From an uncultured Campylobacter sp. (GTDB lineage Bacteria; Campylobacterota; Campylobacteria; Campylobacterales; Campylobacteraceae): DNA of 64,000 nucleotides. A program made the translations under genes and the position numbers. Below, in pieces: positions 1,271-62,470 of the stretch. Under the pieces are notes generated by a model. It had not been told where the DNA came from, did not search any database, and saw only the letters and a program-made list of their open reading frames with translations. The stretch's first letter is position 1. Each line of letters starts with the position of its first letter. The stretch spans positions 5,384 through 69,383 of the forward strand of contig CAMENE010000006.1 in assembly GCA_945928165.1 (NCBI GenBank), given 5' to 3'.

Positions 1271-1612
1271 ATTTTAGAATTCACTAGGGAATTTAGGGAC
1301 AGCCCCTAAGGGTTTAGGGCGTAGCCCTTATAAAATTTGCGAGCTAAATTTATCTAGCCTAAAGCGAGCAAAAATTTAGAATTTCCAAGAATAAATTTAG
1401 AATTCCTAAGAATAAATTTAGAATTCCCTAAGCCTTGTGTTTTTTATGTCATCCCCCAGCCCCCTTGGGGGATCTCATCACATCGCCGTCATCGCCGAAA
1501 TCCCGTCATTACGAGCGAAGCGAAGCAATCTCTAGAAATTCTAAAATTCCCCAAAAAATACCCCGTCCCTTCTGGGGGATCTCATCACAAAGAATTCTAA
1601 AATTCCCTAGCA
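1271..1612. repeat. Composite intergenic repeat block
   Basis: Direct reading: GAATTC-TA-GAATTC-type palindromes, ~21-bp tandem units, three-hairpin module copy at 1294..1375, and GTCAT-hairpin-ATCTC unit at 1448..1476. The same modules recur in most other gaps. Confidence 0.9.
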
Positions 1613-1708
1613 AAAAACAATTTAATAAAACCTTAACAAATTTTAAGCAAAGTTTAACATTTAACATAGTAAAATACCGAACGCATTTTACATTTAAAGG
1701 AGTTAACC

Positions 1709-2743
1709 ATGAAAAAAGGTTTTTCAATGACTGAGTTGATCTTCGTGATTGTTATCTTAGGAATTCTAGCTGGCGTAGCCATCCCTCGCCTAGCTGGTAC
1801 AAAAGCAGACGCTGAAATCTCAGCTGCTGCTGCTAACCTACGCACACTAATAAGCGACGCTGCTGCTTACTATGCAGTAAAAGATGGATTTGGCACTGGT
1901 GATACTATTACTAAATGGAATGAAATTACAAATGTGCCTCTAAACAATCCTAATGGAGCAGTGACTAGCACTGATGGTACCCTAAGAATTGGTGGTAAAG
2001 ACTGCATCGCTGTTAGGATTCAAAATGGAGATGACAATATACCAGCTCACATTCTCTTTCTTAAAAAACCTGGAGATGCTGCTTGCAAACAAGTTCAAAA
2101 TGCAGCACCTCTAAGGGCTTATTTTGACTCAACAGTAAATGGTGTTAAAACTAATCCTGGTACTAAAGGTGCTGTGGCTATCGGCTCAAACGCAAGCCTT
2201 TATGGACCAGCAGCAACAGTAGCAGCAGTAGCAGGACCAGCAGTAGGGGCAGCATCAGCATCAGCAGCAACAATAGCAACAACAGCAGCGGCAGTAGCAA
2301 CAGCAACTGGACCAAGACCAGGAGCAGCATCAGCAGCAACAGTAGCAGGAACAGTAACAAGACCAACAGCAGCACAAGCAGCACGACCAGCAGCACAAGC
2401 ACCAAAACCAGCATCAAAACCAGCAGCGGTAGCATCAGCATCAAAACCAGCAAAACCAGCAGCACAAGCATCAAAACCAGCAAAACCAGCAAAACCAGCA
2501 GCACAAGCACCGGCAGCAAGACCGTGGGTAACGAGTATAACAAGCCCAGCGACACCAGGATCGCCAGTAGCAACAGCAGTATTGGTATGGTCAGGATCAA
2601 GACCAGGAGTACCAGCAGCACCAATAATAGGAGCAGGCGGATATTTTTCAACAGCAACAAATAAAGGAAAAGTAACAAAAGGTACAGGAACAGGATCAAC
2701 AGGATATGCAACACCAGCGTTTTACAAGTTATTCGGACGATAA
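1709..2743 (+). CDS. Type IV pilin-like / competence pseudopilin with long Ala/Pro/Lys/Ser-rich low-complexity C-terminal tail
   Basis: MKKG|FSMTELIFVIVILGILAGVAIPRL is a prepilin-peptidase G|F site with Glu at +5. SD AAAGGAG lies upstream. The globular part runs to about residue 165, followed by ~180 aa of low complexity. Confidence 0.8.
   Translation: MKKGFSMTELIFVIVILGILAGVAIPRLAGTKADAEISAAAANLRTLISDAAAYYAVKDGFGTGDTITKWNEITNVPLNNPNGAVTSTDGTLRIGGKDCIAVRIQNGDDNIPAHILFLKKPGDAACKQVQNAAPLRAYFDSTVNGVKTNPGTKGAVAIGSNASLYGPAATVAAVAGPAVGAASASAATIATTAAAVATATGPRPGAASAATVAGTVTRPTAAQAARPAAQAPKPASKPAAVASASKPAKPAAQASKPAKPAKPAAQAPAARPWVTSITSPATPGSPVATAVLVWSGSRPGVPAAPIIGAGGYFSTATNKGKVTKGTGTGSTGYATPAFYKLFGR
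2438..2506 (+). repeat. In-frame tandem repeat inside pilin tail (30-nt unit, second copy expanded by 9 nt)
   Basis: gcatcaaaaccagcaaaaccagcagcacaa at 2438..2467 is repeated at 2468..2506 with an extra gcaaaacca. It encodes ASKPAKPAAQ / ASKPAKPAKPAAQ. Confidence 0.85.
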
Positions 2744-2767
2744 GCTAAAATATTTAGCTTAAAGAGC

Positions 2768-3580
2768 TAGGGAATTCTAGAATTCTAATTCTAGAATTCC
2801 CTTTTTTTATTAATTTAAACAATTACCATAAAATCTAAAATTCCTGCGCCTTATGTCATTGTCCGGCTTGACTGCCCTGTGTCATTGTCCGGCTCCTTCG
2901 GACAATCTCTATAAAAATCCCCCGACTTGCCTTATCTCATCCCCCAACTTGACCCTAAGATCTCGCTCTCTCTGTCATCCCCGGCCCCCTTGGGGGATCT
3001 CTCATCACATCGCCGTCATCGCCGTCATTACGAGGAGTGAGTGAGACGAAGCAATCTCTATGAATTCTAAATTCTAGCGGGGTTTTAGGGGCGGCAGGGG
3101 TTTAGGGCGTAGCCCTTATAAACTTTGCGAGCTAGGCTAGATTTATCTAGCCTAAAAGCGAGCAAAAATTTATAATTCTTAAGCAAATTTATTAAGCAAT
3201 TCTAGAATTCCGTATAAAATTCCGTAATTCCGTCATCGCCGAAATCCTGTCATTGCGAGAAGTGAGTGAGACGAGGCAATCTCTTAGAATTCTAAATTCT
3301 AGCGGGGTTTTAGGGGCGGCAGCCCCTAAGGGTTTAGGGCGTAGCCCTTATAAACTTTGCGAGCTAGGCTAGATTTATCTAGCCTAAAAGCGAGCAAAAT
3401 TCTAGAATTCCAAGAATAAATTTAGAATTTCCAAGAATAAATTTAGAATTCCTAAGAATAAATTTTGAATTTCTAAGGATAAATTTGCTAAAAATCTAGA
3501 ATTCCAAGAATAAATTTAGAATTCCTAAAAATTGCTTCGGCTTTTTCAAAGCCTCGCAATGACGAAAATTATAAAATTCC
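2768..3580. repeat. Composite intergenic repeat block (813 bp)
   Basis: Two three-hairpin modules (3076..3167, 3301..3399), GTCAT-hairpin units (e.g. 2881..2909), gtcattgcgag..gcaatctc units, and a 21-bp tandem array at 3401..3528. Confidence 0.9.
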
Positions 3581-3841
3581 CTAGTGCTTAAACTTCTTTC
3601 TATGCGCCTCAAAATCTATTTCTATAAAGCGGTTTTGCTTTTTGCCTTTTTTAAAATAAAAATACACAAAAACTCCAAGCAATACAGGAAGCGCAAAAAT
3701 AAACAACCAGCTAAGCACAAAAAACACAAAGGCTAGCAAAGCAAAAAGCCCTATAAGCACAGCCGTGGGCAGCGAAAATGCCAGTAAAAACGCAAAAAAA
3801 TTTCTCAAATATCCACCTAAAATCTGCTTAAATTCTATCAA
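3581..3841 (-). CDS. Small integral membrane protein
   Basis: 86 aa with two strongly hydrophobic segments. TTG start overlaps the end of the upstream MFS gene. No recognisable family. Confidence 0.4.
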   Translation of the reverse strand: MIEFKQILGGYLRNFFAFLLAFSLPTAVLIGLFALLAFVFFVLSWLFIFALPVLLGVFVYFYFKKGKKQNRFIEIDFEAHRKKFKH

Positions 3842-61671: not shown

Positions 61672-61769
61672 GCAAACAATTCGCCAAAATAGCCGCTCAC
61701 GCAAAAATGCGTGGGTGGCATTATATACAAAAACGCTTGCCAAGTCAAGCCAAACTAAAAGGATGAAAA

Positions 61770-62042
61770 ATGAAATTTACAAAATACAGCACAGGCGCAA
61801 ATGCCTTTTATGAGACAGCAGAGATAAACGGCTTAAAAGCTGTTATCCACGGCACAAACGCCATACACACTTTTGATATAAAGCTCGGCGCACGCTTTAA
61901 AATTACTATCGCAAAGGATGTTAGCAATATAAAAGATTTTGAAGTTTATCAAGTTATGCTAAGTGATAGACTAAAAACAGCAAAAGCCCTAGCAGAACAT
62001 TTCTTAAATGTTTGGGCAAAAACCACTAGCAAGGCCCTCTAA
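61770..62042 (+). CDS. Hypothetical protein (prophage-like region)
   Basis: 90 aa with SD AAAAGGA upstream. No family recognised. Confidence 0.5.
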   Translation: MKFTKYSTGANAFYETAEINGLKAVIHGTNAIHTFDIKLGARFKITIAKDVSNIKDFEVYQVMLSDRLKTAKALAEHFLNVWAKTTSKAL

Positions 62043-62140
62043 TGTTAAGTATAATCTCACTTATCATAGCCATTAGCGCATTTGCGCTAAGCGTGCTAAA
62101 TATTATAATAACACGCAAAAAGGAGAAAAAATGCTACTAG
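62042..62140 (+). CDS. 32-aa single-TM peptide, TAATG-coupled
   Basis: MLSIISLIIAISAFALSVLNIIITRKKEKKCY by hand translation. Confidence 0.3.
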   Translation: MLSIISLIIAISAFALSVLNIIITRKKEKKCY

Positions 62141-62220
62141 ATTTTTTTGGGAAGCATTGTGAGAATGTAGTAGAGATCATCGGCTGGGCTTCTTGCTTAG
62201 CTGTGATTATTTTTCACTAG
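62131..62220 (+). CDS. 29-aa peptide with C-terminal hydrophobic segment
   Basis: MLLDFFGKHCENVVEIIGWASCLAVIIFH, with AAGGAG 5 nt upstream. Confidence 0.3.
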   Translation: MLLDFFGKHCENVVEIIGWASCLAVIIFH

Positions 62221-62340
62221 ATAACCACAAAAGCGCAAGCACGCTTCTCGCACGCCCCAGCCAGCTAAAATGGAAGAAAAAATGAAAAATCACGCCCACC
62301 CAAACCCAGCTAGCAAGCCTAAAACCCACTAAGCACGCCA

Positions 62341-62470
62341 AAATACACTTAGAATTCTAGAATTCCAAAACTAGAATTCTAGAATTCCAAAACTAGAATT
62401 CCCTAGCACGCCCCACCCAAAAACTAAAAGAATTCTAGAATTCCAAAATAAAAAAATCTAGAATTCTCAG
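62341..62470. repeat. Palindrome cluster
   Basis: AGAATTCTAGAATTCCAAAACT repeated, plus further copies. Confidence 0.9.

Follow-up and report, generated by a model that had tools for sequence, protein, structure and literature searches.

Why should almost every gap between genes in a bacterial chromosome carry the same short palindrome? The question is raised by 64 kb of DNA from an uncultured Campylobacter (contig CAMENE010000006.1; the whole stretch is hereafter the window), in which the 16-bp perfect palindrome GGAATTCTAGAATTCC, containing GAATTC twice, recurs between genes in a genus whose genomes are generally compact and repeat-poor. The original prediction, made from the letters of the window, held that the lineage may have amplified a methylatable uptake or self-recognition signal. 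Our analysis points elsewhere: the motif is probably the repeat that marks the junctions or ends of units in an intergenic mosaic particular to this lineage, resembling the Neisseria intergenic mosaic elements (NIMEs) and the bacterial interspersed mosaic elements (BIMEs) of E. coli, and turned over by duplication and recombination.

Abundance, anatomy and placement of the palindrome

Gene boundaries in the window were taken from a map curated from open reading frames (ORFs), Pfam hits and gene calls on related contigs, and the expectation for the exact 16-mer from dinucleotide-preserving shuffles. The excess of the motif is real, with 15 exact 16-mers where 0.00 were expected, 92 copies of the 14-mer core GAATTCTAGAATTC at up to two mismatches (0.47 expected) and 33 of the 12-mer half site CTAGAATTCCTA (0.01 expected). 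Copies are present in every range that the original prediction cited as an example, and tandem or nested arrays occur as it described (e.g. 6333-6493, 42213-42565 and 62351-62467). The reported near-absence from coding DNA was likewise borne out, ~95% of copies being extragenic and only four of the 92 core copies lying inside curated genes: exact copies in an addB-like and an addA-like gene, both translated as N-S-R-I-P, one in the last codons of a major facilitator superfamily (MFS) gene, and a degenerate one in a P-type ATPase gene. GAATTC itself occurs at 8.6 per kb in the non-coding DNA of the window and at 0.59 per kb in coding DNA. That almost every gap is filled needs tempering: ~27-28 of the 36 gaps of at least 40 bp are occupied, but divergent, promoter-only gaps and short gaps within operons are mostly empty. 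The site reported between dnaA and dnaN is present, but as a half site only (CTAGAATTCCTA, 27531-27542), kept in seven of the seven strains compared. Two details fell away, as CTAG is common genome-wide (7.6 per kb in coding DNA) and thus no peculiarity of the motif, and the supposed pair of one-mismatch variants, GAATTTTAGAATTC and GAATTCTAAAATTC, is a single variant read on opposite strands.

The DNA is from the pig gut and belongs to an uncultured Campylobacter close to C. magnus; four exact-protein look-ups returned no match, but the 90%-identity clusters of the window's DnaA and GyrB are of Campylobacter sp. and uncultured Campylobacter sp., and that of GyrB takes in Campylobacter magnus. 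Six contigs of metagenome-assembled genomes (MAGs) around ruvC-dnaA-dnaN-gyrB (L001-L006) are ~97% identical to the window in genes, and a metagenome scan with the 20-mer TAGGAATTCTAGAATTCCTA returned 103 further stretches (L051-L153), all near 39% G+C and from few samples. These contigs and stretches form a same-lineage sample of 930 kb, chosen for carrying the motif; within this motif-selected DNA the density was 4.6 per kb outside ORF interiors against 0.09 per kb inside, a 52-fold bias that carries the contrast between coding and non-coding DNA beyond the window. A contig scan with the 16-mer gave, among the matches listed, low-density copies in Ca. Campylobacter infans, two other Campylobacter MAGs and a record named Helicobacter sp. 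10-6591, the other listed matches being mostly single chance matches in unrelated taxa. A link to phages was rejected, viral contigs yielding five single matches, about chance by our own rough estimate of the size of the collection. Many motif matches in the 103 stretches lie within ~250 bp of contig ends, and the exact DnaA of the window occurs in 321 blocks of the assembly collection, with the longest contig carrying it below 10 kb in most; from both observations, the repeat appears to fragment short-read assemblies of the organism. In three of the contigs (L145 118-1017, L101 and L102) a motif array is read through by an ORF of ~299 aa, yielding repeated ...NSRIPSQNLAQ... peptides, with strains differing by units of 28-87 bp; it may be a real repeat protein or a spurious ORF.

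The elementary unit of the motif is a 12-nt half site, TAG-GAATTC-TAG, two of which, head-to-head and overlapping on CTAG, make a palindrome of 16-20 bp, (TA)GGAATTCTAGAATTCC(TA), which a position-frequency table extends to ~(C)TAGGGAATTCTAGAATTCCCTA(G). At up to one mismatch, the window holds 92 left-hand and 98 right-hand half sites, with 49 pairs at the 6-nt palindrome offset; about half of the half sites are thus paired into palindromes and the remainder stand solo, in direct or inverted arrays. Solo half sites, commonly of the form GGAATTCTAGATTTT (complement AAAATCTAGAATTCC), often lie in same-orientation arrays at spacings of 14-15 or 20-23 bp, and the same orientation prevails among neighbouring half sites (RR 293 and LL 245 vs RL 146 and LR 109). 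Attempts to parse the solo sites as split palindromes or as terminal inverted repeats (TIRs) of modules were given up, neither nesting pattern being dominant. Within the 14-mer core, it is chiefly the four G/C positions that vary, for the most part through G:C to A:T transitions. The expectation of two RAATTY sites per palindrome stands, GAATTC being present twice and the variants mostly retaining RAATTY. A stem selected through compensatory change at the outer positions 1 and 14 was rejected, AAATTCTAGAATTT being about as frequent as independence predicts.

Placement relative to genes is strongly uneven. Convergent gaps are occupied in eight of eight cases (6.7 copies per kb) and tandem gaps in most (6.5 per kb), against two copies over seven divergent gaps (1.8 per kb). 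Where at least 40 bp follow a gene's 3' end, a half site is found in 33 of 37 cases, 18 of them with the site within 30 bp of the stop codon; gaps on the 5' side hold a half site in 21 of 36, at a median distance of 57 bp. Many stop codons are themselves built from the motif (nine of the 19 TAG stops and four TAA, e.g. those of MurB, MatE, AddA-like, HisF, DsbD_2 and enolase), so that it supplies the stop codon for ~1 gene in 6. The 930-kb sample repeats the pattern, with a half site within 30 bp of 271 of 724 3' ends and a copy touching 72 of 204 TAG stops. Copies are limited to insertion-tolerant DNA, past stop codons and between convergent genes.

A bidirectional intrinsic terminator, or a hairpin stabilising the 3' ends of RNA as proposed for the repetitive extragenic palindromes (REPs) of E. 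coli, would sit just where these copies do, right past stop codons and in all convergent gaps, and the extended 24-mer folds at -12 kcal/mol (z = -3.3). However, the hairpin of the 16-mer is weak (-3.2 kcal/mol, no better than shuffles), the consensus has no following T-run, the motif is in only 2 of 30 terminator-like sites in 20 kb, canonical GC-rich terminators stand separately beside copies (16970-17010 and 56540-56580), and the half of the half sites that are solo permit no hairpin at all. The terminator role raised in the original prediction is on these grounds scarcely credible. A main role for its -10-like TAGAAT hexamers fares no better: TAGAAT and TAAAAT raise the number of promoter-like matches (63 vs a shuffled expectation of 42), but that role is unsupported because copies shun promoter-only gaps.

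Modules between the copies and their turnover

The DNA between the copies holds several recurrent modules. The non-coding DNA of the window contains about 30 hairpins built as GTCAT-stem-loop-stem-ATC, in two classes, ATCCCCC...GGGGGAT and ATTGCGAG...GCAAT (examples at 42239-42303, 45519-45607, 5013-5076, 29611-29695, 13039-13119, 56252-56283 and 56611-56702). The published degenerate Ssn-related motif (SRM) has four strict matches in the window, against 0.07 expected, and 994 kb yielded 23 strict SRM hairpins, 15 of which have the palindrome and a CTACTAT spacer directly 5', typically as ...GGAATTCTAGAATTCC-CTACTAT-GTCATCC.... The NTS/dRS3 repeats of Neisseria are of the same hairpin family and are bound as single-stranded DNA by the GIY-YIG nuclease SsnA, which cuts a few nucleotides upstream and makes transformation by NTS-bearing DNA less efficient (PMC11893778); Campylobacter is not mentioned in the main text of that paper. 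An Ssn/GIY-YIG ORF was not found by regular expressions and phmmer, with approximate queries, in ~1 Mb of related DNA amounting to a partial genome. Long poly-G/poly-C tracts vary by 10-16 bp between strains (L001, L002 and L004 near the 3' gap of the AddA-like gene; window ~45603-45625), and one such tract lies directly behind an SRM hairpin (GGGGGATCCCCCCCCCTTTTTTTTTT).

A second, structured module of ~110 bp has inverted GGAATTCTAGATTTT ends (15-bp half-site ends) and internal hairpins, and reads AGCGGGGTTTTAGGGGCGGCAGCCCCTAAGGGTTTAGGGCGTAGCCC...AAAGCGAGCAAAAA. It is present in 26 distinct copies in the window and the related loci (window copies at 12895-13027, 55845-55955, ~55985-56095, ~3290-3410 and ~14320-14440), has no Rfam match, and may be a MITE (a miniature transposable element with inverted repeats) or a small RNA. 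Further units are G-rich boxes (TGGGGGTTAGGGGG) and 21-bp tandem units. An Rfam scan of the window put only tRNA over threshold, leaving the repeats outside every known RNA family.

Whole motif-bounded units have been gained, lost, duplicated and swapped within one species. The gap downstream of ruvC measures ~370 bp in the window and up to ~1000 bp elsewhere, strains carrying the same modules in other numbers and orders, joined every time at TAGGAATTCTAG. All pairwise alignments together gave 116 distinct indels of at least 8 bp, many of them in the mosaics and comprising whole motif-bounded units (8-146 bp); the motif-bounded ones mostly resemble tandem duplication or slippage with microhomology, and strains also differ by module swaps. 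At 44441-44602 the window has a palindrome, a 130-bp hairpin module and a second palindrome where strain L098 has one palindrome between identical flanks. The polymorphism, of 146 bp, reads GGAATTC-TA-[GAATTCC...GGAATTC]-TA-GAATTCC, and is equally explained by insertion of a GAATTCC-ended element at the central TA, by site-specific recombination or by deletion between copies.

Turnover is also visible between species and at a larger scale. A WYL regulator gene followed by a DUF1643-like gene (L074 1193-2795, L026 6893-7530 and L015 2950-3100; 78-80% nucleotide identity) was assigned by eye from translations, without a domain search, the WYL gene being read in L074 only. The segment is shared by this lineage, Ca. 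C. infans and the Helicobacter sp. record with motif copies at corresponding positions, which suggests a small island that was horizontally transferred; a deletion between two copies in its spacer sets the Helicobacter sp. record apart from the Campylobacter versions. Downstream of ruvC, conspecific contigs have a pilin-like gene, a catalase, an integrase island or the hyp243 gene, with junctions in the mosaic (window 29468-29879; upstream parts of L003, L005 and L006); these changes of neighbourhood may be real rearrangements or MAG chimeras.

In aligned orthologous DNA, differences amounted to 3.5% in the motif, 2.9% in other non-coding DNA and 2.65% in coding DNA, with gap rates of 2.6%, 0.8% and 0.07%, respectively. 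As the motif equals or exceeds other non-coding DNA in both measures, individual copies are under no visible extra constraint, and its abundance fits maintenance by continuing duplication and recombination and not by conservation of single sites. The same figures bear on the proposal that an abundant dimeric protein (a nucleoid-associated protein, a roadblock or insulator at 3' ends, or a global regulator) binds the palindrome and half-site arrays about two helical turns apart, copies being kept for chromosome organisation or transcription control. Perfect dyad symmetry over 16-20 bp, the recurrent half-site spacings, the near-universal placement at gene 3' ends, the excess of TAGAAT promoter-like matches over shuffles, and the conserved copies of the dnaA-dnaN spacer and the WYL/DUF1643 island would all suit such a protein. 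We nevertheless consider it distinctly unlikely, given that motif positions show no more conservation than the rest of the non-coding DNA and are three times as prone to indels, copy number per locus differs freely between strains, many copies are degenerate, the motif is rare where regulators act (divergent promoter gaps), and no candidate protein was identified.

The intergenic mosaic that we favour would consist of small modules (Ssn-related hairpins, the ~110-bp element, G-rich boxes and 21-bp units) bounded by half sites and palindromes. Slipped-strand or unequal recombination would lengthen and shorten its arrays, as would homologous exchange among the numerous identical copies, with incoming DNA a likely contributor in a naturally transformable genus. 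Local duplication would do most of the work, since solo half sites are un-nested and indels slippage-like. First arrival at new loci would call for an enzyme acting in trans, which could be a transposase (with the half site as TIR, or TA/CTAG as target) or a site-specific recombinase of the sort suggested for dRS3 in Neisseria. The copies are for the most part probably passengers, selfish or neutral, and as side effects would create new protein C-termini, -10-like TAGAAT hexamers, breakpoints of rearrangement and breaks in short-read assemblies.

Several points weigh against this mosaic. A crude search of a partial genome, covering the window and ~1 Mb of related contigs, turned up no transposase, RAYT (the mobiliser of REPs), recombinase or GIY-YIG gene; a phmmer search for Y1 (HUH) transposases, with approximate IS200/IS608/YafM-type queries, found none among 3170 ORFs of this incomplete genome, and looking for genes that recur in multiple contexts gave no candidate in the same DNA. 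No target-site duplication is demonstrable, TA insertion, site-specific recombination and homologous deletion predicting the same sequences. Conserved copies do exist (the dnaA-dnaN half site in seven strains and two copies of the WYL/DUF1643 island in three species), an array spacing of 20-22 bp would fit a bound protein, and part of the strain differences could be assembly errors in MAG contigs.

The mosaic is close to the suggestion in the original prediction that copies are MITE termini or recombination sites, which agrees with modules having inverted ends and being present or absent between strains, but for which no transposase was found. Taken strictly, as non-autonomous MITEs mobilised by an IS630/Tc1-mariner-like or other transposase encoded elsewhere, with the half site as TIR or the central TA/CTAG as target, each insertion would remake CTAG targets at its ends, giving a head-to-tail pile-up in which full palindromes are junctions. 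The inverted ends of the ~110-bp module, or a GATTTTWGC-ended element lying in a split palindrome with flanking TA, can be read this way. So can the filled and empty forms of the 146-bp polymorphism, as a TA-flanked GAATTCC...GGAATTC element compatible with TA duplication, and arrays are common, with TAG and TAA stop codons as frequent junctions. Yet besides the missing transposase, solo half sites are not nested as L...R or R...L, same-orientation neighbours outnumber opposed ones, most strain indels look like slippage or tandem duplication with microhomology, and units of 20 bp are implausible cut-and-paste substrates. We regard strict transposition as unlikely, and the mosaic sustained by duplication and recombination as the probable reading.

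The copies and arrays of the window are as follows (window coordinates; strand is given where the feature has one).

1269..1606: array with the RNase H gene on one side and a Q-rich hypothetical gene on the other; three core copies and four half sites, with GTCAT hairpins intermixed
2771..3525: three clusters (2771-2844, 3196-3211 and 3397-3525) in a convergent gap, among them tandem units of 21 bp and a single ~110-bp module
4969..5116: array on the downstream side of the MFS_1 gene, with copies to either side of an SRM-like hairpin pair at 5013-5076
6333..6493: dense array of six core copies and 11 half sites, with periods of 21-22 bp and 73 bp; the last CTAG provides the enolase stop
11121..11208: array whose first motif TAG serves as the MurB stop codon
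12895..13027: ~110-bp structured module with inverted half-site bounds (GGAATTCTAGATTTT ... GAATTCTAAAATTCC)
14226..14487: array starting 1 nt past the hexapeptide-transferase stop (TAA-GGAATTCTAG); four core copies, one an exact 16-mer
16960..17124: convergent TonB-receptor/MatE gap, where a module stands between two exact 16-mers
18500..18515: lone exact 16-mer upstream of the MatE gene, adjoining a strain-variable 250-bp hairpin cassette
20502..20969: two clusters, the QueF gene on one side and a methyltransferase gene on the other, with GTCAT hairpins interleaved and one ~110-bp module
23642..23653, minus strand: solo half site CTAGAATTCCTA, 11 nt past the DUF4878 stop
27531..27542, plus strand: solo half site in the dnaA-dnaN spacer, kept in seven strains
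29474..29828: hypervariable mosaic downstream of ruvC with seven core copies; a synteny breakpoint
32677..32692: exact 14-mer within the AddB-like gene, in frame N-S-R-I-P
35418..35433: exact 14-mer within the AddA-like gene, in the same frame N-S-R-I-P
36206..37162: convergent gap with clusters at 36206-36221, 36396-36469 and 37007-37162, of which the first, an exact 16-mer, provides the AddA-like stop with its central TAG
37795..37915: array that separates the PBECR1 gene from the glycosyltransferase gene and touches the stop of the latter
40854..41383: arrays downstream of the acetyl-CoA hydrolase gene; five core copies, one an exact 16-mer
42213..42565: palindromes alternating with hairpin modules; seven core copies between SRM-like hairpins
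44358..44602: array past the CarA gene; palindromes 44441-44456 and 44587-44602 around a 130-bp hairpin module
45285..45733: convergent-gap mosaic with several GTCAT hairpins, its end copies touching the DsbD_2 TAG and hyp95 TAA stops
47814..47828: degenerate copy standing by itself in a divergent gap; just one other copy was found in such gaps
49179..49244: cluster that follows the Pyr_redox gene
51726..51903: copies at the HisF stop (TAG-GAATTCTAG); strain L053 has 77 extra bp of units
53954..54000: 36-bp inverted pair across the MFS_3 stop codon, ahead of greA
55530..56712: 1.4-kb convergent gap past asd, in which nine core copies are accompanied by a pair of ~110-bp modules and by several GTCAT hairpins
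61076..61091: variant copy GGAATTTTAGAATTCC; the MethyTransf_Reg ORF ends on its central TAG
62351..62467: tandem array of 22-bp period, TAGAATTCTAGAATTCCAAAAC, in a convergent gap

Some of these gaps invite comment. The TonB-receptor/MatE gap is 98% identical in three strains, with a canonical bidirectional terminator standing separately alongside, and the convergent gap at 36206-37162 varies between strains, including one to three copies of the 21-bp unit. A CRISPR-like reading of 42213-42565 was dismissed, the 'spacers' themselves being repeat families and the repeat only 16 bp. Between the MatE and HD-domain genes, a long inverted-repeat cassette of ~250 bp (18515-18797) is replaced in two strains by a different cassette of similar structure (L001 17750-18160 and L002 17720-18100). 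A CAG/CAA-rich tandem repeat at 2208-2518 encodes a glutamine-rich, low-complexity segment of a 344-aa hypothetical gene. At 59498-61085 a methyltransferase-domain ORF ends right after a G8 tract and the MethyTransf_Reg ORF follows 25 bp on; the two resemble a single gene interrupted at a homopolymer, as is the case for Campylobacter genes subject to phase variation.

Uptake and self-recognition

There remains the proposal with which the question began, that the lineage amplified a GAATTC-bearing self mark, methylatable to N6-methyladenine (m6A), for uptake in natural transformation, spread in the manner of the DNA uptake sequence (DUS) of Neisseria or the uptake signal sequence (USS) of Haemophilus. 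C. jejuni does restrict uptake to RAATTY-methylated DNA (PMC10046745; bioRxiv 10.1101/2024.09.10.611283), each palindrome offers two such sites as GAATTC, and variant positions nearly all change from G:C to A:T with RAATTY kept. Whereas several other palindromic hexamers are avoided, GAATTC is not; the inverted pairs at 3' ends are reminiscent of Neisseria DUS, and the window's only exact intragenic copies sit in addA/addB-like repair genes.

Ordinary DNA of the lineage, however, is without sign of selection for RAATTY or GAATTC. Shuffling of synonymous codons, with protein sequence and codon usage preserved, gave an expectation of 117.5 RAATTY sites in coding DNA, where 127 occur (~2.5 per kb), and of 95 for GAATTC, where 83 occur outside motif contexts. 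An apparent 3-4-fold excess of GAATTC in ORFs (299 vs 95) vanished once motif-like contexts were masked, having arisen largely from upstream repeats taken in by over-long ORF calls together with a few true intragenic copies. Across 493 ORFs with 548 kb of coding DNA (window and loci), the same kind of shuffle found the palindromic hexamers CTTAAG, ATTAAT, CTGCAG, TGGCCA and ATCGAT depleted 3-8 fold, which suggests restriction systems of those specificities; in that set GCTAGC was enriched 1.9-fold and GAATTC was not depleted.

The form and history of the copies also speak against an uptake signal. They crowd together, with as many as 11 half sites in 160 bp, and are not spread, they come and go as whole units by indels and not by point substitution, their intragenic density does not rise with gene length, and they are no better conserved than other non-coding DNA. 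The retention of RAATTY is equally explained by a GC-to-AT mutation bias, since the only G/C positions of the core are the varying ones. No Dam- or CtsM-like orphan methylase was seen in ~1 Mb of this partial genome, a weak test: phmmer with E. coli Dam found no Dam-like ORF, and the ORFs with a [DNS]PP[YFW] motif, namely one of ~940 aa seen twice (NPPF) and two of ~260 aa (NPPF and NPPY), included none obviously like an orphan GAATTC/RAATTY methylase, as judged without a Pfam scan.

An amplified signal would moreover be superfluous. With RAATTY at expectation, any ordinary fragment of a few kb already carries sites. In C. jejuni, where RAATTY is said to occur about every 60 bp, constructs were made transformable by adding one or two EcoRI sites methylated by M.EcoRI (PMC10046745); with sites so frequent and one or two sufficing, a 16-bp signal is unnecessary for that mechanism. 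The uptake signal thus finds no support in this DNA, and we give it very little credence. A broader form, in which the palindrome is the Campylobacter counterpart of Neisseria dRS3/NTS in transformation control, with CtsM-like methylation of GAATTC marking self, an Ssn-type nuclease cutting, in incoming single strands, the GTCAT hairpins 7 nt downstream, recombination tracts ending at gene boundaries and modules being shuffled in consequence, strikes us as very unlikely too.

Comparison with known mosaic and iterated elements

With one short palindrome and its modules dominating the non-coding DNA of the lineage, ~1 protein in 6 has its C-terminus set by a repeat, and the hot spots of rearrangement and indels could be used for strain typing. 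Ssn-related hairpins have only recently been tied to transformation control, in Neisseria, and uptake in this genus depends on RAATTY methylation; whether such mosaics are selfish or take part in the control of transformation, and whether GAATTC methylation is involved, thereby becomes testable in Campylobacter.

The closest known architecture is that of the Neisseria intergenic mosaic element, followed by the BIME/REP elements of E. coli, and the Campylobacter family is a member of neither, given that it has neither the dRS3 sequence nor the GTAG signature of REPs and that no RAYT gene was found. Like NIMEs, in which RS modules are flanked by the 20-bp dRS3 inverted repeat and NTS hairpins are cut by SsnA (PMC11893778), it forms arrays of non-coding modules of ~20-150 bp bounded by a short palindromic repeat in hundreds of copies, which are extragenic, strain-variable and hot spots of rearrangement, with GTCAT-led Ssn-related hairpins alongside in a naturally transformable genus. 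In contrast to dRS3, which is ATTCCC-N8-GGGAAT (PMC11893778), the Campylobacter motif, GGGAAT-TCTAGA-ATTCCC, is spacerless and unrelated; it lies 5' of the SRM hairpin and does not form its stem, its 12-nt half site also occurs solo, neither an Ssn gene nor a phage recombinase was found in ~1 Mb, and the host belongs to another phylum (Campylobacterota). With REP and BIME it shares high-copy extragenic palindromes, a preference for 3' ends and convergent gaps, and mosaics of alternating orientation with other short motifs. It differs in being shorter and AT-rich with a weak hairpin (REPs are imperfect palindromes of 20-40 nt with stable ones), in having symmetric (C/T)TAG flanks and not an asymmetric 5' GTAG, in its many solo half sites in direct arrays, and in that approximate queries detected no Y1/RAYT gene in ~1 Mb.

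Other iterated sequences are more distant. DUS and USS resemble the motif in being short, at ~1 per kb overall, with inverted pairs downstream of genes, and RAATTY is contained in it as in the C. jejuni mark; but DUS and USS are also frequent in genes, substitution-evolved and spread, whereas the Campylobacter motif is 52-fold excluded from genes, indel-born and densely arrayed, and the CtsM system of C. jejuni uses plain, frequent RAATTY and needs no amplified motif. Correia elements and MITEs share inverted half-site module ends, presence/absence polymorphism, TA/CTAG junctions, promoter-like hexamers and stop codons, but the Campylobacter repeat has no defined full-length element, demonstrable target-site duplication or found transposase, and its commonest unit is 16-20 bp. 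The cyanobacterial HIP1 (GCGATCGC) is likewise a highly iterated perfect palindrome over methylation sites, experimentally linked to transformation efficiency, but is 8 bp long, GC-rich and abundant in genes, and forms no mosaics or arrays. In the literature searched, the sequence was in no paper and no description of such repeats in Campylobacter was found. The kind of element is known, and what is new is the family itself, its half-site organisation, its role as a donor of stop codons and its physical link to Ssn-related hairpins. It is a second, independent NIME-like architecture in a naturally transformable genus.

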